Sequence record: OQ223305.1
Direction: 5' to 3' (one strand)
DNA from: Escherichia phage EO1
DNA: 64,000 bases
Positions 7,296-63,882 of the stretch are shown piece after piece (the first letter of the stretch is position 1; every line of letters begins with the position of its first letter). The position numbers were made by a program, and so were the translations under genes. Below the pieces are notes generated by a model, which was given only the letters and a program-made list of their open reading frames with translations, was not told the origin of the DNA and did not search any database.

Positions 7296-7307
7296 AAATA
7301 ATAAATA

Positions 7308-7337
7308 CCCTTATCTATTTAAGGTAAGGGTTTTATT
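7308..7337 (+). terminator. rho-independent terminator after the pin-like ORF
   Basis: Stem CCCTTA (7308-7313) / TAAGGG (7325-7330) followed by TTTTATT. Confidence 0.55.
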
Positions 7338-7811
7338 ATGTTATTGACTGGCAAATTATATAAAGAAGAAAAACAGAAATTTTATGATGCACAAAACGGT
7401 AAATGCTTAATTTGCCAACGAGAACTAAATCCTGATGTTCAAGCTAATCACCTTGACCATGACCATGAATTAAATGGACCAAAAGCAGGAAAGGTACGTG
7501 GATTGCTTTGTAATCTCTGCAATGCCGCAGAAGGTCAAATGAAGCATAAATTTAATCGTTCTGGCTTAAAGGGACAAGGTGTTGATTATCTTGAATGGTT
7601 AGAAAATTTACTTACTTATTTAAAATCCGATTACACCCAAAATAATATTCACCCTAACTTTGTTGGAGATAAATCAAAGGAATTTTCTCGTTTAGGAAAA
7701 GAGGAAATGATGGCCGAGATGCTTCAAAGAGGATTTGAATATAATGAATCTGACACTAAAACACAATTAATAGCTTCATTTAAGAAGCAGCTTAGAAAGA
7801 GTTTAAAATGA
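7338..7811 (+). CDS. 49: endonuclease VII (Holliday junction resolvase), gp49
   Basis: 157 aa; MLLTGKLYKEEKQKFYDAQNGKCLICQRELNPDVQANHLDHDHEL matches T4 endo VII as recalled. Confidence 0.85.
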   Translation: MLLTGKLYKEEKQKFYDAQNGKCLICQRELNPDVQANHLDHDHELNGPKAGKVRGLLCNLCNAAEGQMKHKFNRSGLKGQGVDYLEWLENLLTYLKSDYTQNNIHPNFVGDKSKEFSRLGKEEMMAEMLQRGFEYNESDTKTQLIASFKKQLRKSLK

Positions 7812-10425: not shown

Positions 10426-10737
10426 ATGATTAGTTTTGAGCGGTATGTAGTAGAGAGTTGGAATGGTTTTGATATGTTCGGTAATGACTATTATTTCTAT
10501 GAATGTAGTCTGAACCCAAGCTTCTGGGCTGGACGTGAACAAGACCTCGAAGAAATTAATGCTCGTGCCGATTTGTTAGGTGAATTGCCTACTACTTATT
10601 TCACCTTTGATGAATCCGGCTTCGTTATCCAGGTTTATTTTCCTGAAGAAAACTCTGGTGAGGATTCTGTTAACCCGCCATACTGGGCTTATCAAGGAAT
10701 TATTTCTCGTGGAACAAAACTCGAACTTAAAGAATAA
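10426..10737 (+). CDS. hypothetical protein (103 aa)
   Basis: ORF with T4-like codon usage; contains an NPPY tetrapeptide but is far too short for a methyltransferase. Confidence 0.45.
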   Translation: MISFERYVVESWNGFDMFGNDYYFYECSLNPSFWAGREQDLEEINARADLLGELPTTYFTFDESGFVIQVYFPEENSGEDSVNPPYWAYQGIISRGTKLELKE

Positions 10738-17695: not shown

Positions 17696-17882
17696 CATTA
17701 ATGATGAATTCATAGCAAACATTGATTATACCGAAGAAGATTCTAGATATGTTGGAATAATTTATATCACATCAAAAACAGCACAAGGTGTTGTTTGCAT
17801 GGCTGAATTTGATGAATACTTTTTAGATTATGATGATATGATAGAATGGTCTAAAAGATACATTAAAAGGAATCTTTTGTGA
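17619..17882 (+). CDS. hypothetical protein (87 aa); start uncertain
   Basis: ORF overlapping the previous one; alternative ATG at 17667. Confidence 0.3.
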   Translation: MTHLNHYEIWLYLVLRMHTVKFSTFDINDEFIANIDYTEEDSRYVGIIYITSKTAQGVVCMAEFDEYFLDYDDMIEWSKRYIKRNLL

Positions 17883-19561
17883 AGAATTTTAAACTTAATA
17901 GAGTAAAATATAAAAATATAATGTCAGTTGGTCAAAATGGGATTGACATTCAATTAGATAAGGTTCAAAAAACTCTTATTACTGGACGAAATGGCGGTGG
18001 TAAGTCTACTATGCTAGAAGCCATCACATTTGGGCTTTTTGGCAAGCCATTTCGTGATGTAAAGAAAGGTCAATTAATAAACAGCACAAATAAGAAAGAA
18101 CTTTTAGTTGAACTGTGGATGGAATATGATGAGAAAAAGTACTATATCAAAAGAGGACAAAAACCGAACGTTTTCGAAATCACCGTTAACGGTACACGTC
18201 TTAATGAATCTGCCAGCAGTAAAGATTTCCAAGCAGAATTTGAACAGCTTATCGGAATGTCATATGCCAGTTTCAAGCAGATTGTTGTCCTTGGTACAGC
18301 AGGGTATACCCCTTTCATGGGTTTGTCGACCCCTGCGCGAAGAAAGCTTGTGGAAGACCTGCTCGAGGTAGGAACATTAGCTGAAATGGATAAGCTTAAT
18401 AAAGCACTAATACGTGAATTAAATTCACAAAACCAAGTGCTTGATGTTAAAAAAGATAGTATTATCCAACAAATTAAAATATATAATGATAACGTTGAAC
18501 GCCAGAAAAAATTAACGGGTGACAACCTTACTCGTCTTCAAAATATGTATGATGATTTGGCAAAAGAAGCTAGAACGCTAAAATCGGAAATAGAAGAAGC
18601 TAATGAAAGATTAGTTAATATTGTTTTAGACGAAGACCCGACTGATGCATTTAATAAAATCGGCCAAGAAGCAGTTTTAATTAAATCAAAAATTGACTCG
18701 TATAATAAAGTCATTAATATGTATCACGAAGGTGGATTATGTCCAACCTGTTTGTCACAATTAAGTTCTGGTGATAAAGTTGTTTCTAAAATTAAAGATA
18801 AAGTTTCTGAATGCACGCATTCGTTTGAACAGCTTTCAACACATCGTGATAATTTAAAAGTTCTTGTTGATGAATACCGAGATAATATTAAAACCCAGCA
18901 GTCGCTGGCAAATGATATTCGCAATAAAAAGCAATCTCTAATCACGACGGTAGATAAAGCTAAAAAGGTTAAAGCGGCTATAGAAAAAGCATCTTCTGAG
19001 TTTATTGACCATGCTGATGAAATAGCATTGCTTCAAGAAGAACTTGATAAAATTGTTAAGACAAAAACTAATTTAGTAATGGAAAAATACCACCGAGGAA
19101 TTTTGACTGATATGCTCAAAGATTCTGGTATTAAAGGTGCTATTATTAAAAAGTACATTCCATTATTTAATAAGCAGATTAACCATTATCTTAAAATAAT
19201 GGAAGCGGATTATGTGTTTACATTAGATGAAGAATTTAATGAGACAATTAAATCCCGTGGTCGTGAAGATTTTAGTTATGCTTCATTTAGTGAAGGTGAA
19301 AAAGCAAGAATTGATATTGCTCTTTTATTTACTTGGCGTGATATTGCTTCTATTGTATCTGGTGTTAGTATTAGTACATTAATACTCGATGAAGTGTTTG
19401 ATGGGTCATTTGATGCCGAAGGTATTAAAGGTGTAGCTAATATTATAAATTCAATGAAAAACACTAATGTTTTTATAATTTCGCATAAAGACCATGACCC
19501 GCAAGAATACGGTCAGCATCTTCAAATGAAGAAAGTTGGTCGATTTACTGTAATGGTTTAA
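17879..19561 (+). CDS. 46: recombination endonuclease subunit gp46 (Rad50/SbcC-like ATPase), 560 aa
   Basis: 560 aa; Walker A GRNGGGKST, central coiled coil with CPTC zinc hook, C-terminal signature/Walker B; GTG start as in T4. Confidence 0.85.
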   Translation: MKNFKLNRVKYKNIMSVGQNGIDIQLDKVQKTLITGRNGGGKSTMLEAITFGLFGKPFRDVKKGQLINSTNKKELLVELWMEYDEKKYYIKRGQKPNVFEITVNGTRLNESASSKDFQAEFEQLIGMSYASFKQIVVLGTAGYTPFMGLSTPARRKLVEDLLEVGTLAEMDKLNKALIRELNSQNQVLDVKKDSIIQQIKIYNDNVERQKKLTGDNLTRLQNMYDDLAKEARTLKSEIEEANERLVNIVLDEDPTDAFNKIGQEAVLIKSKIDSYNKVINMYHEGGLCPTCLSQLSSGDKVVSKIKDKVSECTHSFEQLSTHRDNLKVLVDEYRDNIKTQQSLANDIRNKKQSLITTVDKAKKVKAAIEKASSEFIDHADEIALLQEELDKIVKTKTNLVMEKYHRGILTDMLKDSGIKGAIIKKYIPLFNKQINHYLKIMEADYVFTLDEEFNETIKSRGREDFSYASFSEGEKARIDIALLFTWRDIASIVSGVSISTLILDEVFDGSFDAEGIKGVANIINSMKNTNVFIISHKDHDPQEYGQHLQMKKVGRFTVMV

Positions 19562-32061: not shown

Positions 32062-32355
32062 ATGAAAAAATTTATCTTTGCTGCAATTTTTGCTTTATCT
32101 TCTTGTGCTGCTCAGCCTGCTATGGCAGGTTATGATAAAGATTTGTGTGAGTGGTCTATGACTGCAGACCAGACTGAGGTTGAAACTCAAATTGAAGCAG
32201 ATATTATGAATATCGTTGAGCGTGATCGTCCTGAAATGAAAGCTGAGGTGCAAAAACAACTTAAGTCTGGTGGTGTAATGCAGTATAATTATGTTCTGTA
32301 TTGCGATAAAAACTTTAATAATAAAAATATCATCGCTGAAGTGGTAGGTGAATAA
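32062..32355 (+). CDS. sp: Spackle (periplasmic superinfection-exclusion protein), 97 aa
   Basis: 97 aa with N-terminal signal peptide MKKFIFAAIFALSSCAAQPAMA; size and position match T4 sp (61.3). Confidence 0.6.
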   Translation: MKKFIFAAIFALSSCAAQPAMAGYDKDLCEWSMTADQTEVETQIEADIMNIVERDRPEMKAEVQKQLKSGGVMQYNYVLYCDKNFNNKNIIAEVVGE

Positions 32356-33149: not shown

Positions 33150-34178
33150 ATGTCATCAATACCTTGGATTGATAATGAGTTTGCATACCGTGCATTGGCT
33201 CATTTACCTAAATTCGCACAAGTAAATAATAGTTCAACTTTTAAATTACGGTTTAGATGTCCTGTTTGTGGAGATTCAAAAACCGACCAAAATAAAGCCC
33301 GTGGATGGTATTATGGCGATAATAATGAAGGAAATATTCATTGTTATAATTGCAACTATCATGCACCAATCGGAATATATTTAAAGGAGTTTGAACCCGA
33401 TTTATATCGTGAGTATATCTTTGAAATAAGAAAAGAAAAAGGTAAAAGTCGTCCAGTAGAAAAACCTAAAGAACTTCCTAAACAACCTGAGAAGAAAATA
33501 ATTAAATCTCTTCCGTCATGTATTAGATTAGATAAACTGGCGGAAGACCATCCAATTATAAAATATGTAAAAGCTCGTTGTATTCCAAAGGATAAATGGA
33601 AATATCTTTGGTTTACAACCGAATGGCCTAAATTAGTTAATAGCATAGCACCGGGAACATACAAAAAGGAAATTTCTGAGCCTCGTCTTGTTATTCCAAT
33701 TTATAATGCTAATGGAAAAGCTGAGTCTTTTCAAGGACGTGCATTAAAGAAAGATGCTCCTCAAAAATATATCACCATTAAAGCTTATCCTGAGGCAACA
33801 AAAATTTACGGTGTTGAACGAGTTAAAGATGGCGATGTATATGTTCTAGAAGGACCTATAGATTCACTTTTTATTGAAAATGGTATAGCTATTACGGGTG
33901 GTCAATTAGACCTAGAAGTTGTTCCATTTAAAGATAGGCGTGTGTGGGTCTTAGATAATGAACCTCGTCATCCTGACACTATTAAGCGAATGACTAAATT
34001 AGTTGATGCAGGAGAAAGGGTTATGTTTTGGGATAAATCTCCCTGGAAATCAAAAGATGTTAATGATATGATTAGAAAGGAAGGTGCAACCCCTGAACAA
34101 ATTATGGAATATATGAAAAATAATATTGCCCAGGGATTGATGGCTAAAATGCGGCTATCTAAATATGCTAAGATTTAA
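33150..34178 (+). CDS. 61: DNA primase gp61 (342 aa)
   Basis: 342 aa; N-terminal zinc-binding cysteines (CPVCGDS...CYNC) and TOPRIM region. Confidence 0.9.
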   Translation: MSSIPWIDNEFAYRALAHLPKFAQVNNSSTFKLRFRCPVCGDSKTDQNKARGWYYGDNNEGNIHCYNCNYHAPIGIYLKEFEPDLYREYIFEIRKEKGKSRPVEKPKELPKQPEKKIIKSLPSCIRLDKLAEDHPIIKYVKARCIPKDKWKYLWFTTEWPKLVNSIAPGTYKKEISEPRLVIPIYNANGKAESFQGRALKKDAPQKYITIKAYPEATKIYGVERVKDGDVYVLEGPIDSLFIENGIAITGGQLDLEVVPFKDRRVWVLDNEPRHPDTIKRMTKLVDAGERVMFWDKSPWKSKDVNDMIRKEGATPEQIMEYMKNNIAQGLMAKMRLSKYAKI

Positions 34179-34375
34179 ATTAACCCAACTAAAGCAAATG
34201 CTAAATCTACAAATGTATCAAGAGTAACTACTGGAATATTAATACCATGCGCAATTGCAACAGGTGATAGAATAAAGTTCCAGAGTAAAATTCCTACCAT
34301 AGCAGAAATAGTAAAAGCTATACGTTTTTTATTACCTTTTATGGCATTAACAAGTGCCATTAATTTTTGTACCAT
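34175..34375 (-). CDS. hypothetical small membrane protein on the opposite strand (66 aa)
   Basis: Minus-strand ORF with strong SD (GGAGG, 4 nt spacer) and T4-like codon usage; two hydrophobic segments; stop overlaps the gene 61 stop. Confidence 0.4.
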   Translation of the reverse strand: MVQKLMALVNAIKGNKKRIAFTISAMVGILLWNFILSPVAIAHGINIPVVTLDTFVDLAFALVGLI

Positions 34376-34388
34376 ATGTCCTCCTTAT

Positions 34389-34412
34389 TGCTTTATATAT
34401 TTATTGTATAAT
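34389..34412 (+). promoter_or_regulatory. middle (MotA-dependent) promoter candidate for gene 56
   Basis: TGCTTTA at 34389-34395, 11-bp spacer, TATAAT at 34407-34412. Confidence 0.5.
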
Positions 34413-34448
34413 TAATCTACTAACCCATGAATTGAAAGGAAAAATAAC

Positions 34449-34967
34449 ATGCCACATTTCAACGAATGTAGTCAACTGATCGAAGGCGCTGATAAAGCTC
34501 AAAATGAATATTGGGATATTCTCGGTGATGAAAAAGACCCGCTGCAGGTAATGCTTGACATGCAGAAATCTCTGCAAATTCGTTTAGCTAAAGATAAACC
34601 TGAATATAATCGTCATCCTGATGACTTGGCTACTGCCGGTGAAGTTGTTGATTGGTTGCGTAATCAGAAAGATTATATTGACGATGAATTCCGTGAACTT
34701 CTGACTTCTCTTGGTGGTATGAGTAATGGTGAAAAAGACGCATCTGCTGTATGGAAACCTTGGAAGTCGCAGCATGGTGAGCGTCGTGAAACTCTGATTA
34801 CTGATTTGTCTCCGCAAGACCAGTTAGAAATTAAATTTGAAATGATTGATATTCTTCATTTCGTTCTGAATATGTTCCAGGGTCTTGGTCTTACAGCTGA
34901 AGAAATCTTTAAACTTTATTACCTGAAAAATGCTGAAAATTTCGCACGTCAGGACCGAGGTTATTAA
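34449..34967 (+). CDS. 56: dCTPase/dUTPase gp56 (MazG-like), 172 aa
   Basis: 172 aa; position after 61 and a MotA-box promoter upstream. Confidence 0.7.
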   Translation: MPHFNECSQLIEGADKAQNEYWDILGDEKDPLQVMLDMQKSLQIRLAKDKPEYNRHPDDLATAGEVVDWLRNQKDYIDDEFRELLTSLGGMSNGEKDASAVWKPWKSQHGERRETLITDLSPQDQLEIKFEMIDILHFVLNMFQGLGLTAEEIFKLYYLKNAENFARQDRGY

Positions 34968-35107
34968 TGTCTCGTTTAAATAAACGTCAACTCAAAAAGT
35001 TGAATAAGAAAAGGGCGAAAGCCCTTACTGCTTTATTACGTAATGAAATAACTAAAGAAATAGACCAAGAGATTATTGAACAACTCTGGAAAGCCGCTAA
35101 ATTGTAA
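34967..35107 (+). CDS. hypothetical basic peptide (46 aa); may be non-coding
   Basis: ORF overlapping the gp56 stop; contains GGGCGAAAGCCC hairpin at 35013-35024. Confidence 0.25.
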   Translation: MSRLNKRQLKKLNKKRAKALTALLRNEITKEIDQEIIEQLWKAAKL

Positions 35108-35109
35108 GT

Positions 35110-35117
35110 TATAAATA
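35110..35117 (+). promoter_or_regulatory. late promoter (TATAAATA) for soc
   Basis: Exact TATAAATA 32 nt upstream of the soc ATG. Confidence 0.7.
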
Positions 35118-35148
35118 CACCTGTAATTAAACAATAAAGGAGTTTATT

Positions 35149-35385
35149 ATGGGTGGTTTCGTTAACATCAAGACCTTTACTCATCCAGCAGGTGAAGGCA
35201 AAGAAGTTAAAGGTATGGAAGTTTCTGTAGCATTTGATGTATATTCAAATGAACACCGTATTGCAGATTCTCATTATCAAATCTTTCCGTCAGAAAAAGC
35301 AGCTTATTCTGATGTAGTTTCCGATGCAGCAACTTGGAAAACTAAGAATGCTGCAATGTTTACGCCTACAGAAATAGGTGGTTAA
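35149..35385 (+). CDS. soc: small outer capsid protein Soc (78 aa)
   Basis: VNIKTF...VSVAF...HYQIFPSEKAAYS matches T4 Soc as recalled; late promoter TATAAATA upstream and strong terminator downstream. Confidence 0.75.
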   Translation: MGGFVNIKTFTHPAGEGKEVKGMEVSVAFDVYSNEHRIADSHYQIFPSEKAAYSDVVSDAATWKTKNAAMFTPTEIGG

Positions 35386-58605: not shown

Positions 58606-59262
58606 TTATTTAGCCCTTCCTAATATTCTGGCCGCCTGAGCACATATTGATTCAAGGCGGTCATTACTTATATGATCATTTCTATACCAGTACATAGTTA
58701 TCGTTCCAGCATAGATATTATCCAAATTAAAATATGGACAACTGTACATGTAGTTTATTTCGGGAGTAGGCTTTTTAGTTGGTAAAAAAGCAAATTTTGA
58801 GTTGGAATAATAATGACGTCCATTTAAATGAACTGTATATTCATCCATAGTTTTATCAACAGGATATCCTCCAAGTGATTTTTCACTTATTGTTGAAGGT
58901 AATTTTCCTTCATATGCTATAATATCAACAAAATAGTTTAAGTTTTTAGGGCGGAAAGAATACACCGCACTAAAGTCTGCCTCAGATGATATATGAACTA
59001 TCTGGAGTTGTTCCAGGGCGACAGATTCAAAGCGTGCATTTCTTTCCTTTTCAATAATTTCACTGTATGTTTCATACTTTGATTGCTTATAGTACTCAAA
59101 GAAACTATCTCCCCTATACCAAACAATCGCCATTATAAACAAAAGAATTACGACAGCTACCCGGGAAGCAAGAACATTCCCGGTAGCGTTATCTTTGAAC
59201 AAGCGATCTAGAACACCCAACAGAATATCAGAGGGCGAAAATGATATTCTAGGTACTGCCAT
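58606..59262 (-). CDS. t: holin T (218 aa)
   Basis: 218 aa; one N-terminal transmembrane segment and large C-terminal domain; late promoter TATAAATA and AGGAGG SD upstream on the minus strand. Confidence 0.85.
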   Translation of the reverse strand: MAVPRISFSPSDILLGVLDRLFKDNATGNVLASRVAVVILLFIMAIVWYRGDSFFEYYKQSKYETYSEIIEKERNARFESVALEQLQIVHISSEADFSAVYSFRPKNLNYFVDIIAYEGKLPSTISEKSLGGYPVDKTMDEYTVHLNGRHYYSNSKFAFLPTKKPTPEINYMYSCPYFNLDNIYAGTITMYWYRNDHISNDRLESICAQAARILGRAK

Positions 59263-59280
59263 AGACCCTCCTTTTAAGGA

Positions 59281-59288
59281 TATTTATA
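59281..59288 (-). promoter_or_regulatory. late promoter (TATAAATA) for holin t
   Basis: Minus-strand TATAAATA (plus-strand TATTTATA at 59281-59288), followed by AGGAGG SD and the ATG at 59262. Confidence 0.7.
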
Positions 59289-63194: not shown

Positions 63195-63851
63195 TTAATA
63201 ATAGCCGAAATCTTGAACAGAATCCTTAATAACAATTTGGTCAAATCGTGGAACATGCGAGGGTTGAGATGCAGGATTCTGTGAAAAAAGGTTTGGCGCA
63301 GTTAAATTTCCTGTCATAGTGTCTCCAGAGCGTAATACCCTAGAGTTTGCGTTTGCGGTAACAATATTTATTGCTCCATCAACATAATCTTTCCGCGTAA
63401 GGTCATAATTATTTACTGGTGATAACGAAGTTACACGGATTTGTGATGCTTCAATTACGCCCTTTGAACTAATATCTCCGTTTCGCGTGTTAATTACTAC
63501 AGTTCTACCTGCTGCCCCTTGTGATGATTTAAAGCCGATACCATACCATGAAACAATATCCATATTTGTAGTATCATATGTGGCATTATCACCAGGACCG
63601 GCAAAAATGCCGTTGTCACCTGACCCAGCACCAGGAACAGTCATTCCTTTATTAAAAATTACTTTATTTAAATAAGTACCACCATTAGCTTTAGAAACGA
63701 AATCGTTATCAGTTGCTTGTGGTTTATTATATTCTGAATATATTTTAAATGATTTATAGAGTACATCGTCACCGGCTGGATTCAATGGAAAATTTCCTTG
63801 ATGCCAAATGACAGAGCCTCCAGTTGTTGAACCTACTTTTAAATCAGCCAT
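63195..63851 (-). CDS. 36: long tail fibre distal connector gp36 (218 aa)
   Basis: 218 aa; late promoter TATAAATA (rc at 63875-63882) upstream; precedes gene 37. Confidence 0.8.
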   Translation of the reverse strand: MADLKVGSTTGGSVIWHQGNFPLNPAGDDVLYKSFKIYSEYNKPQATDNDFVSKANGGTYLNKVIFNKGMTVPGAGSGDNGIFAGPGDNATYDTTNMDIVSWYGIGFKSSQGAAGRTVVINTRNGDISSKGVIEASQIRVTSLSPVNNYDLTRKDYVDGAINIVTANANSRVLRSGDTMTGNLTAPNLFSQNPASQPSHVPRFDQIVIKDSVQDFGYY

Positions 63852-63874
63852 TGTATGCCCCTTTATTTTAATAG

Positions 63875-63882
63875 TATTTATA
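63875..63882 (-). promoter_or_regulatory. late promoter (TATAAATACTATT) for gene 36
   Basis: Minus-strand TATAAATA (plus TATTTATA 63875-63882) between the gene 35 terminator and the gene 36 ATG. Confidence 0.7.

Follow-up and report, generated by a model that had tools for sequence, protein, structure and literature searches.

A conserved dam.1-type gene converges on primase gene 61 in Escherichia phage EO1 and encodes a predicted single-pass membrane protein

Introduction

In the T4 arrangement, a DPPY-type methyltransferase frame of about 259 aa (dam) is placed between primase gene 61 and gene 56. We analysed a stretch of 64,000 nucleotides of Escherichia phage EO1 (OQ223305.1), called here the window, where no such frame is found between these two genes and where a short reading frame on the opposite strand runs towards gene 61 and shares its last letters with it. 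It is natural to ask whether this frame is a gene at all, or an accident of a region which carries several signals of the other strand, and, if it is a gene, when it would be expressed and what kind of protein it would give. The initial annotation of the locus, made from the letters alone, had proposed a genuine opposite-strand membrane-protein gene converging on gene 61 in an interval devoid of dam, and each element of this description was verified in our analysis, save the second of the two helices attributed to the product.

Results

The frame occupies positions 34175..34375 of the minus strand and consists of 66 codons and a stop, as had been claimed and as both direct reading and the listing of open reading frames confirm; the 66-aa product, MVQKLMALVNAIKGNKKRIAFTISAMVGILLWNFILSPVAIAHGINIPVVTLDTFVDLAFALVGLI, is a member of the dam.1 family of small membrane proteins (phrog_2024). 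Length alone is not beyond chance for a frame in this AT-rich window, and many spurious ones are found in the same listing. The start codon ATG (34375-34373) is preceded by a Shine-Dalgarno sequence AAGGAGG (34380..34386, minus strand, by direct reading), whose GGAGG part, at 34380-34384, is separated from the ATG by the 4-nt spacer ACAT, so that the strong ribosome-binding site noted initially is indeed present. GGAG(G) stands 4-6 nt 5' of the start codon in all of the 11 other lineages examined as well.

The convergent neighbour is the DNA primase gene 61 (33150..34178, plus strand; phrog_47, E 1e-106), with a product 99-100% identical to the Tequatrovirus primases, and the divergent one is the dCTPase/dUTPase gene 56 (34449..34967, plus strand), recognised by its match to phrog_173 and named gene 56 in relatives. 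The stops of the two convergent genes overlap just as described before: the minus-strand TAA (34175-34177) and the TAA of gene 61 (34176-34178) both lie within the palindrome ATTTAAAT (34173..34180, direct reading), which reads Ile-stop on each strand and gives the two genes 4 nt in common. The primase gene is overlapped in the same way, by 4 nt, in AR1, G50, T4T, Mosigvirus, JS10, Marfa, Kosakonia 305, Moon and the b copy of UPEC01. A terminator scan of the plus strand returned a terminator-like hairpin at 34341..34369 (8-bp stem, AACA loop, then UUAAUUUUUG), located downstream of gene 61 and within codons 6-12 of the minus-strand frame; its RNA fold has an energy of -8.9 kcal/mol and a z of -2.6, and the records of SA21RB and fPS-90/fPS-65 mark a rho-independent terminator at the same site. 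On the minus strand no terminator was found between the stop of the frame and the start of gene 61; PKO111 has a strong hairpin between the ORF and the primase gene.

The interval between genes 61 and 56 measures only 270 nt and holds no DPPY-type methyltransferase frame, in agreement with the first reading. A tblastn search with T4 Dam showed that a Dam/DPPY methyltransferase is absent from the whole 64-kb window (best E-value 0.78), where ORFs of 100 aa or more contain [DNS]PP[YFW] motifs only elsewhere, at 10672 and 31857.

Codon usage of the frame is T4-like, as had been stated: it scores 0.349 log2-odds per codon, the 31 long ORFs of the window average 0.355, and the other frames score from -1.3 to +0.04, which makes the usage gene-like in this frame only; it is also the only frame of the region that is open in all lineages compared. 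The dN/dS ratio is 0.1-0.4 overall. Within Tequatrovirus most pairs give 0.11-0.22, and the closest pairs, with only 3-12 differing sites, reach up to about 0.6-0.7; the ratio is 0.2-0.45 between genera, where synonymous sites are saturated (pS 0.6-0.8 vs pN 0.3) and the amino-acid sequence is kept. Compared with the Mosigvirus homologue, the differences fall on the three codon positions as 28/13/42, second positions changing least. Conservation, dN/dS, ribosome-binding site and codon usage of the ORF are beyond chance, and, judged by sequence comparison, it is a genuine protein-coding gene under purifying selection and an orthologue of T4T dam.1.

The phrog_2024 profile is matched with an E-value of 1.4e-31 (residues 2-66 against positions 1-65 of 65), and the 13 diverse homologues that were compared all match it too; the window protein carries the W-N, P, G and P positions and falls within the length range of 62-74 aa which characterise the family. 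By tblastn the ORF is present in 692 phage records, phage T4 included, where it lies at 17738..17938 of the plus strand, with at least 80% length cover in 686 of the records, so the absence from close relatives, which the initial annotation had named as the observation contrary to its proposal, was not seen. The protein is 100% identical in Shfl2, CM8, G4498 and others. All proteins returned by the profile search measure 41-74 aa, and many are encoded on contigs of ~160-175 kb. The gene adjoins the primase gene in Tequatro-, Mosig-, Gapriver-, Dhaka-, Marfa-, Kanagawa-, Jiaoda-, Moon- and Gelderlandvirus, and its convergent place after gene 61 is kept in all nine examined T-even-like genera having the family (eight of Tevenvirinae, and Marfavirus); in Krischvirus, Slopekvirus, Biquartavirus and Hadassahvirus the primase gene has no such ORF after it. 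As far as these sequence comparisons reach, the family does not extend beyond Tevenvirinae and Marfavirus.

The dam.1 gene of T4T (T4Tp032, ADJ39749) and its orthologues AR1_033, KMC09_gp033 and SA21RB_034 are the same gene as the one described here: 66 aa, 97-100% identity, convergence on gene 61 with the 4-nt overlap, the same ribosome-binding site and the same NATAAATA box upstream. A more distant subfamily, b, is represented by JS10, Marfa, ZX14 and the second tandem copy in the Gapriverviruses UPEC01 and TH44. It has the same length, primase-adjacent position, late-type box, phrog_2024 assignment and W-N...P...G...P...acidic motif as the window protein, but only 18-30% identity to it, and is distinguished by an N-terminus MG[ST]IFYQIWKL and by an Asp inside the transmembrane segment; some Gapriverviruses carry it in tandem with a copy of type a, and in DK-13 and TH40 it has decayed.

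Beyond phrog_2024, no match to the family was obtained in Pfam or PADLOC, NCBIfam gave only chance matches to single members (E at least 0.008), a sequence profile search of PDB gave a best E of 0.26 with generic transmembrane segments only, and Foldseek against BFVD returned family members only. A phmmer search of 1.84 billion representatives gave 9 proteins at E up to 0.001, among which are three full-length family members and three truncated relatives (P0029-P0031). The long repeat proteins P0032, P0036 and P0037, also returned by phmmer, were rejected because their scores add up over many repeats, among them those of a soluble propeller with the PQQ-like motif 'LLWNF..SSPAVANG'. IMG/VR contributed 5 near-identical loci only, too few for population-level statistics.

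The initial annotation had given the product two hydrophobic helices, of which one stands and the other does not. Residues 19-42 form a credible transmembrane segment, while the C-terminal 12-residue helix (52-63) is not transmembrane, its insertion scoring from +4 to +13 kcal/mol in every family member. For the window protein, a membrane-insertion scale used without position weighting gives +0.4 kcal/mol over residues 19-37 and +6.5 over the C-terminal 19 residues, and the same pattern is seen in 13 of 13 members. A second transmembrane helix at the C-terminus was rejected on these family-wide scores and on the short charged tails of the Moon and Kosakonia-type proteins. An AlphaFold2 model of moderate confidence (pLDDT 73) places helices at residues 2-11, 15-42 and 52-63, and the charges flanking the transmembrane segment are +5/-0 on the N-terminal side and +0/-2 on the C-terminal one. 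The likely topology, according to these predictions, is N-in/C-out with one transmembrane helix and a short periplasmic helix. W32, N33, P38, G44 and P48 are invariant in alignment A1; in alignment A2 the first three are invariant, and A40, G44 and P48 are at least 90% conserved.

Upstream of the gene, on its own strand, a AATAAATA box (34398..34405) ends 22 nt before the ATG and has the form of a T4-type late (gp55) promoter, with a predicted leader of ~17 nt; transcription would be expected to start some 6 nt downstream of the box, near 34392 (near 17720 in T4). The core NATAAATA is rare, occurring only 8 times in the 128 kb of both strands of the window. Besides the box described here, four have a ribosome-binding site and an ATG after them, and the genes they introduce, soc, the holin gene t, a tail-fibre gene and gene 49, are all late-expressed in T4. 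A NATAAATA box is positioned 15-22 nt 5' of the ATG in 10 of 12 lineages, the window among them (9 of the 11 others); the perfect TATAAATA box is seen in Marfa, ZX14 and Kosakonia 305, and Moon and CGG4-1, having no exact NATAAATA, both have the variant ATTAAATA. T4 late genes, which depend on gp55, gp33 and gp45, have a TATAAATA-type box roughly one helical turn upstream of the transcription start and lack a -35 element; the box found here, rare in the window and kept across genera, agrees with this. Position -13 departs from the consensus, being A in the window, G in T4 (GATAAATA) and C in Gaprivervirus; in phage Lutter the homologous GATAAATA carries a promoter annotation. Among variants of the T4 late promoter A(-13) is the most frequent, with 9 of 50 listed sites, and a TA->AT change is found in one (PMC2988020). 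T4 early and middle transcripts share one polarity and late ones take either, and at some sites both strands are copied into RNA, each at its own time (PMC2988020). The strand of the ORF is opposite to that of genes 61, 56, sp and 61.x, a polarity which fits the late class. The sole candidate for a sigma-70 promoter of the minus strand, a weak 9/12 match inside and antisense to gene 56, was rejected; early and middle transcription has the opposite polarity.

The same upstream region coincides with the promoter of gene 56 on the plus strand, as had been proposed: a MotA box TTGCTTTA (34388-34395) and, after 11 nt, a -10 TATAAT (34407-34412) make up a divergent MotA-type middle promoter at 34388..34412, seen by direct reading, which can be aligned with P(M)16.53, a documented T4 promoter that has its mot-box and -10 marked in X01416. 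The late box (34398-34405) sits in the spacer of this promoter. Such interdigitation is a feature of the window phage and of AR1-like phages, where dam is absent, whereas in T4, T4T and T2 dam lies on the other side of the ORF and the late box is outside the gene 56 promoter. According to the T4 record, the gene 56 transcript is the oriA primer RNA.

Discussion

Taken as a whole, the locus is best explained as a genuine dam.1-type gene with putative late expression and a predicted single-pass inner-membrane product, and we hold this explanation to be highly probable. The ORF itself is already known: it is present as a hypothetical protein in hundreds of GenBank records and is named dam.1 in T4T. 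Our literature search found no paper on the dam.1/phrog_2024 gene. What is added here is the conserved putative late box, which the initial annotation did not mention, the predicted single-transmembrane topology and the range of the family.

The gene is probably switched on late in infection. Its transcription would be carried out by gp55-bearing RNA polymerase from the AATAAATA box at 34398-34405; late timing is the most likely one because the ORF is on a strand which is unused by T4 early and middle transcription, and the conserved late box would account for the expression of a minus-strand gene within an early/middle region. Since the late box of this dam-less phage falls into the spacer of the MotA promoter, the two promoters would stand back to back, probably being active at different times. 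Because no terminator follows the ORF, the late transcript probably continues into gene 61 as antisense RNA. The translated product would be a single-pass inner-membrane protein with an amphipathic cytoplasmic N-terminus ending in a KGNKKR cluster, a transmembrane helix at about residues 19-42, in which Trp-Asn and Pro are invariant, and a tail of about 24 residues in the periplasm. This tail would contain the Gly and the Pro that are invariant, together with a conserved acidic residue, and would form a short amphipathic helix.

Three other explanations have to be weighed against this gene reading. Spurious ORFs of 60-100 aa are numerous in the AT-rich window, a plus-strand terminator-like hairpin and a middle promoter overlap the 5' end and the upstream region of the ORF, and the frame is left unannotated in the RefSeq records of T4 and JS10, all of which would suit a chance antisense frame in a region conserved for plus-strand signals, namely the 3' end of gene 61, the terminator and the gene 56/dam promoter. 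We regard this as very improbable, as amino acids are conserved across genera despite synonymous saturation, dN/dS is well below 1, second codon positions vary least, codon usage is gene-like in the frame of the ORF only, and the ribosome-binding site is kept in every lineage; the hairpin, in sequences read by eye, is not conserved outside Tequatrovirus, and the protein is. It could also be suggested that the peptide is secondary and that the unit acts mainly at the RNA/DNA level, late antisense transcription into gene 61 and occlusion of the gene 56 middle promoter (in T4 the promoter of the oriA primer) leading to a late shut-off of primase expression and origin firing. The open path for antisense transcription from the stop of the ORF to the start of gene 61, the tail-to-tail overlap of the genes in most genera, the position of the late box within or next to the MotA promoter where dam is absent, the identity of the gene 56 transcript in the T4 record and the transcription of both strands at some T4 sites at different times (PMC2988020) are all in line with such a role. 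It nevertheless seems improbable to us: the protein itself is under purifying selection, with five invariant residues, and therefore the peptide is not incidental; the dam gene of T4 and T2 puts ~0.9 kb or more between the late box and the gene 56 promoter, so that promoter occlusion is not a conserved feature; and the strong hairpin of PKO111 stands between the ORF and the primase gene.

Only slightly better placed, and still unlikely in our opinion, is the suggestion that the protein is a holin or a pinholin-like lysis protein, which follows the 'Holin' names given to the OE5505 orthologue in UniProt and to a relative in EAWsc9. The product is small, hydrophobic and predicted to be membrane-embedded, a late-type promoter precedes its gene, and the predicted segment 19-42 supplies the one or more transmembrane domains expected of a small holin. 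Those names, however, are submitter or automatic labels without a cited test, and the window already has the T-even holin T (58606-59262; phrog_860, E 5e-107) with its own TATAAATA box. Holins typically end in a hydrophilic, highly charged cytoplasmic C-terminal tail, while the dam.1 product has one transmembrane segment and a hydrophobic C-terminus, ...DLAFALVGLI, with a net charge of -2 and no basic residues. Searches of PHROGs, Pfam and NCBIfam gave no holin family for it, and no endolysin or spanin gene is adjacent, the neighbours being the primase and dCTPase genes, so that neither the charged tail nor the family match nor the linkage to lysis genes is found. Holin T of T4 (class III) is an inner-membrane protein with a single transmembrane segment in N-in/C-out orientation, and it is likewise driven by a late promoter, the box and gene t being seen in the window; with 218 aa, a large periplasmic domain and its own family, phrog_860, it has no sequence or profile similarity to the ORF product.

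Returning to dam.1 as a late gene for a membrane protein, our best guess for its role, a tentative one, is that of a late accessory factor on the cell envelope, for example in lysis timing or lysis inhibition, in late superinfection exclusion or in membrane-associated assembly. Such a factor would most plausibly act by attaching to a membrane protein of the host or of the phage. T4 has in Imm, Sp (spackle) and RI short membrane or periplasmic proteins that alter the behaviour of the envelope; RI is a secreted periplasmic antiholin, and the genes of Imm and Sp are early ones of the opposite strand, sp being found in the window at 32062-32355 (plus strand), 2 kb upstream. None of the three has detectable homology to the ORF, and the likeness is one in kind only, which does not speak for a shared function. 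A bolder proposal, to which we attach a rather low probability, is that dam.1 is an overlooked late envelope component, for example a modulator of holin T or of lysis inhibition, or a late superinfection-exclusion factor, and that in dam-less phages its late promoter may also silence the MotA promoter of gene 56.

The ordinary outcome of this work is that an annotated hypothetical gene was recognised correctly from raw sequence. T4 is the reference organism of this phage group, and yet its RefSeq record (NC_000866.4) lacks a gene which is under clear purifying selection. Analyses keyed to that annotation are blind to dam.1 because the record omits it, and the main T4 transcriptome/proteome study counted the genes of NC_000866.4 only. 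If the bolder proposal is true, dam.1 may have escaped decades of T4 genetics, and recent omics too, through a reference omission, and in dam-less phages a late-transcription switch would be coupled to a shut-off of origin-dependent replication. Including dam.1 in the reference would cost little, and work on the gene could reveal one more small membrane protein that acts late in infection.

Results

The window is a segment of a Tequatrovirus (T4-like) genome, and its 61-56 region shows 98.2% identity with Shigella phage Sf23 and ~97% with phage AR1. Between gene 61 (primase, 33150..34178, plus strand) and gene 56 (dCTPase, 34449..34967, plus strand) the opposite strand carries an ORF of 66 codons (34175..34375, minus strand), whose orthologue is named dam.1 (T4Tp032) in the Karam-laboratory T4T record. 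The ORF listing and direct sequence reading reproduce to the base the 66-aa frame of the initial annotation, and the sequence bears out the Shine-Dalgarno element that it described, AAGGAGG with a 4-nt spacer before the ATG, as well as the overlap of stops: the TAA of dam.1 (34175-34177) and that of gene 61 (34176-34178) both lie within the palindrome ATTTAAAT, which reads Ile-stop on either strand. The gene 56 product begins with MPHF in the window and with MAHF or MAYF in relatives, and a small indel or substitution cluster falls directly at the gene 56 start codon (34440-34460, plus strand). A 46-aa lysine-rich ORF (phrog_14392; 34967-35107, plus strand) begins at the gene 56 stop codon, upstream of soc.

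The ORF length proves nothing by itself, because the window listing holds many antisense ORFs of similar size, and it is on four independent lines, namely codon usage, purifying selection, family match and retention, that dam.1 is a gene. Under codon log-odds derived from the 31 long ORFs of the window, its frame scores 0.349 per codon against a long-gene mean of 0.355 (66-codon pieces of long genes: mean 0.370, 5th percentile 0.165; other five frames at the locus: -1.31 to +0.04), in agreement with the T4-like codon usage noticed earlier. Most comparisons within Tequatrovirus give dN/dS of 0.11-0.22, ~0.6 being reached in the most similar pairs, where only a handful of sites differ; against Mosigvirus and Gaprivervirus homologues pS is 0.6-0.8 and pN 0.3, with typically 28/13/42 differences at first/second/third codon positions. 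The whole length of the protein aligns with phrog_2024 (E 1.4e-31), as holds for 13/13 diverse homologues gathered. Retention in relatives, on which the initial annotation had staked its claim, is wide: tblastn matches to the ORF come from 692 phage records, with at least 80% of its length covered in 686.

Nine genera have a homologue at the corresponding site, facing the primase gene tail to tail and in most cases overlapping it by the same 4 nt: Tequatrovirus (AR1, G50, SA21RB, T4, T4T, T2), Mosigvirus (G2469), Gaprivervirus (DK-13, UPEC01, TH40), Dhakavirus (JS10), Marfavirus, Kanagawavirus (ZX14, Kosakonia 305), Jiaodavirus (PKO111), Moonvirus and Gelderlandvirus. W32, N33, P38, G44 and P48 are invariant family-wide; near position 53 an acidic residue is almost invariant. 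The family has two sequence subfamilies, and some Gapriverviruses hold one of each in tandem, as in UPEC01 (L007 1995-2192 and 2201-2401) and TH44; the second copy is decayed in DK-13 (L006, about 2200-2375) and TH40 (L008, about 2200-2420), where ATG is directly followed by TGA. All matches of a profile search against 5.8 billion proteins are 41-74 aa long, many of them lying on contigs of about 160-175 kb, and in Krischvirus, Slopekvirus, Biquartavirus and Hadassahvirus the primase gene is not followed by a dam.1-type ORF; the family therefore appears limited to Tevenvirinae plus Marfavirus. The primase-dUTPase gap of Krischvirus KFS-EC (NC_055757) is filled by an unannotated 187-aa ORF (L024 2044-2607, plus strand) that, by the look of its sequence, may be an HNH/AP2-type homing endonuclease.

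The 61-56 interval itself (34179-34448) is an insertion/deletion hot spot throughout which dam.1 is retained (loci of relatives inspected: L002 2797-3447, L006 2372-3121, L023 800-1360, L004 2347-3126). G50-like phages and DK-13 have homing-endonuclease genes inserted here, T2-type phages an extra 186-aa ORF, and T4 as well as the T2-type phages the dam gene; as the initial annotation said of this interval, no DPPY-type methyltransferase ORF is found, dam being absent from the entire window.

The dam.1 strand is opposite to that of the early/middle genes 61, 56 and sp. According to the review of Geiduschek and Kassavetis (PMC2988020), early and middle transcripts of T4 all share one polarity, either polarity occurring only among late transcripts, and the late promoter is an 8-bp box, TATAAATA, lying roughly one turn of the helix ahead of the transcription start; of 50 listed sites 32 have the perfect box, nine have A(-13) and one is a TA->AT variant. 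A putative late box, AATAAATA (34398-34405, minus strand), ends 22 nt upstream of the dam.1 ATG. The motif NATAAATA occurs only 8 times in 128 kb (both window strands), and its combination with a ribosome-binding site and ATG is found at four other places (7300-7811 and 35110-35385, plus; 58606-59288 and 63195-63882, minus), ahead of gene 49 (endonuclease VII), whose box is the AATAAATA variant, soc, gene t for the holin, and a tail-fibre gene that resembles gene 36. All four are expressed late in T4, so in this genome the arrangement appears diagnostic for late genes. In 9/11 other lineages a box lies 15-22 nt upstream of the start codon in otherwise diverged sequence: perfect TATAAATA in Marfa, ZX14 and Kosakonia 305, AATAAATA in Mosigvirus, JS10 and PKO111, GATAAATA in T4 and Lutter, and CATAAATA in Gaprivervirus; the other two lineages, Moon and CGG4-1, have the variant ATTAAATA. 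In the record of phage Lutter the equivalent 8 bases carry a promoter annotation, and with this recurrence the predicted late transcription of dam.1 from the putative box is well supported by comparison.

The upstream region coincides, as first noted, with the MotA-type middle promoter of gene 56 (TTGCTTTA at 34388-34395, 11 nt, TATAAT at 34407-34412, plus strand), the late box lying inside its spacer. This promoter aligns with T4 P(M)16.53, the mot-box and -10 of which are marked in X01416; the T4 record gives the gene 56 transcript as the primer for origin oriA. In Mosigvirus, JS10 and Gaprivervirus the late box directly adjoins the MotA box or overlaps with it, whereas in T4 the dam gene separates it from the gene 56 promoter; the promoters interdigitate in the window because dam is absent, and this is not a conserved feature. 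Just upstream of the middle promoter, within dam.1 codons 6-12, a terminator-like hairpin (34341-34360, plus strand, -8.9 kcal/mol, z -2.6) is followed by a U-run to 34369; other annotators have flagged it as well, and it may plausibly terminate transcription of gene 61. No minus-strand terminator was found downstream of dam.1, so that its late transcript would continue antisense into gene 61.

Discussion

Hydropathy of the dam.1 product gives one strongly hydrophobic stretch, residues 19-42, and helices are placed at 2-11, 15-42 and 52-63 by an AlphaFold2 model built from 36 aligned sequences (mean pLDDT 73). On a simple membrane-insertion scale applied without position weighting, residues 19-37 score +0.4 kcal/mol and the last 19 residues +6.5, the C-terminal stretch scoring +4 to +13 in every member of the family, which speaks against a two-helix hairpin. 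Net charge is always positive on the N-terminal flank (+5/0 in dam.1) and negative on the C-terminal one. Together, scores and charges favour a single-pass form, and we consider the protein most likely an N-in/C-out inner-membrane protein with a predicted short amphipathic periplasmic helix. Of the two hydrophobic helices initially proposed, segment 19-42 thus stands as a credible membrane-spanning one and the second does not; the observation and interpretation of the ORF were otherwise correct.

No likeness outside the family was found by sequence, profile or fold. A holin is a weak reading: UniProt gives this name to the OE5505 orthologue and one tblastn match in the EAWsc9 record carries it, no test being cited, but the phage already has a holin, T, whose gene carries a consensus late box, and a charged tail at the C-terminus is missing from the dam.1 protein, which matches no holin family. 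That the unit acts purely at the RNA level is contradicted by selection on its amino-acid sequence. Our working view is that the protein would act on the envelope (lysis timing, lysis inhibition or late exclusion) or in membrane-associated assembly, possibly through contacts of the invariant Trp-Asn/Pro/Gly/Pro/acidic motif.

The gene is already annotated, as a 'hypothetical protein', in hundreds of GenBank records, and we found no paper mentioning it. Wrong names have propagated among homologues ('DNA packaging ATPase', 'dCTP pyrophosphatase', 'thymidylate synthase'), and GenBank/UniProt records misnamed in this way, 'Holin' included, can be seen at, for example, L007 2201-2401 and L020 1501-1725, loci of relatives. 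T4 encodes the protein at 17738..17938 (plus strand); in its RefSeq (NC_000866) and in AF158101 nothing is annotated in the 309 bp that separate dam from gene 61, and the JS10 RefSeq likewise leaves the ORF unannotated. A time-resolved T4 transcriptome/proteome study could not see dam.1, because only NC_000866.4 features were quantified. We conclude that dam.1 is a real, conserved small membrane-protein gene (phrog_2024, listed as hypothetical), probably expressed late. The feature is of modest interest, and the practical point is its omission from the T4 reference annotation, owing to which it has gone unmeasured.
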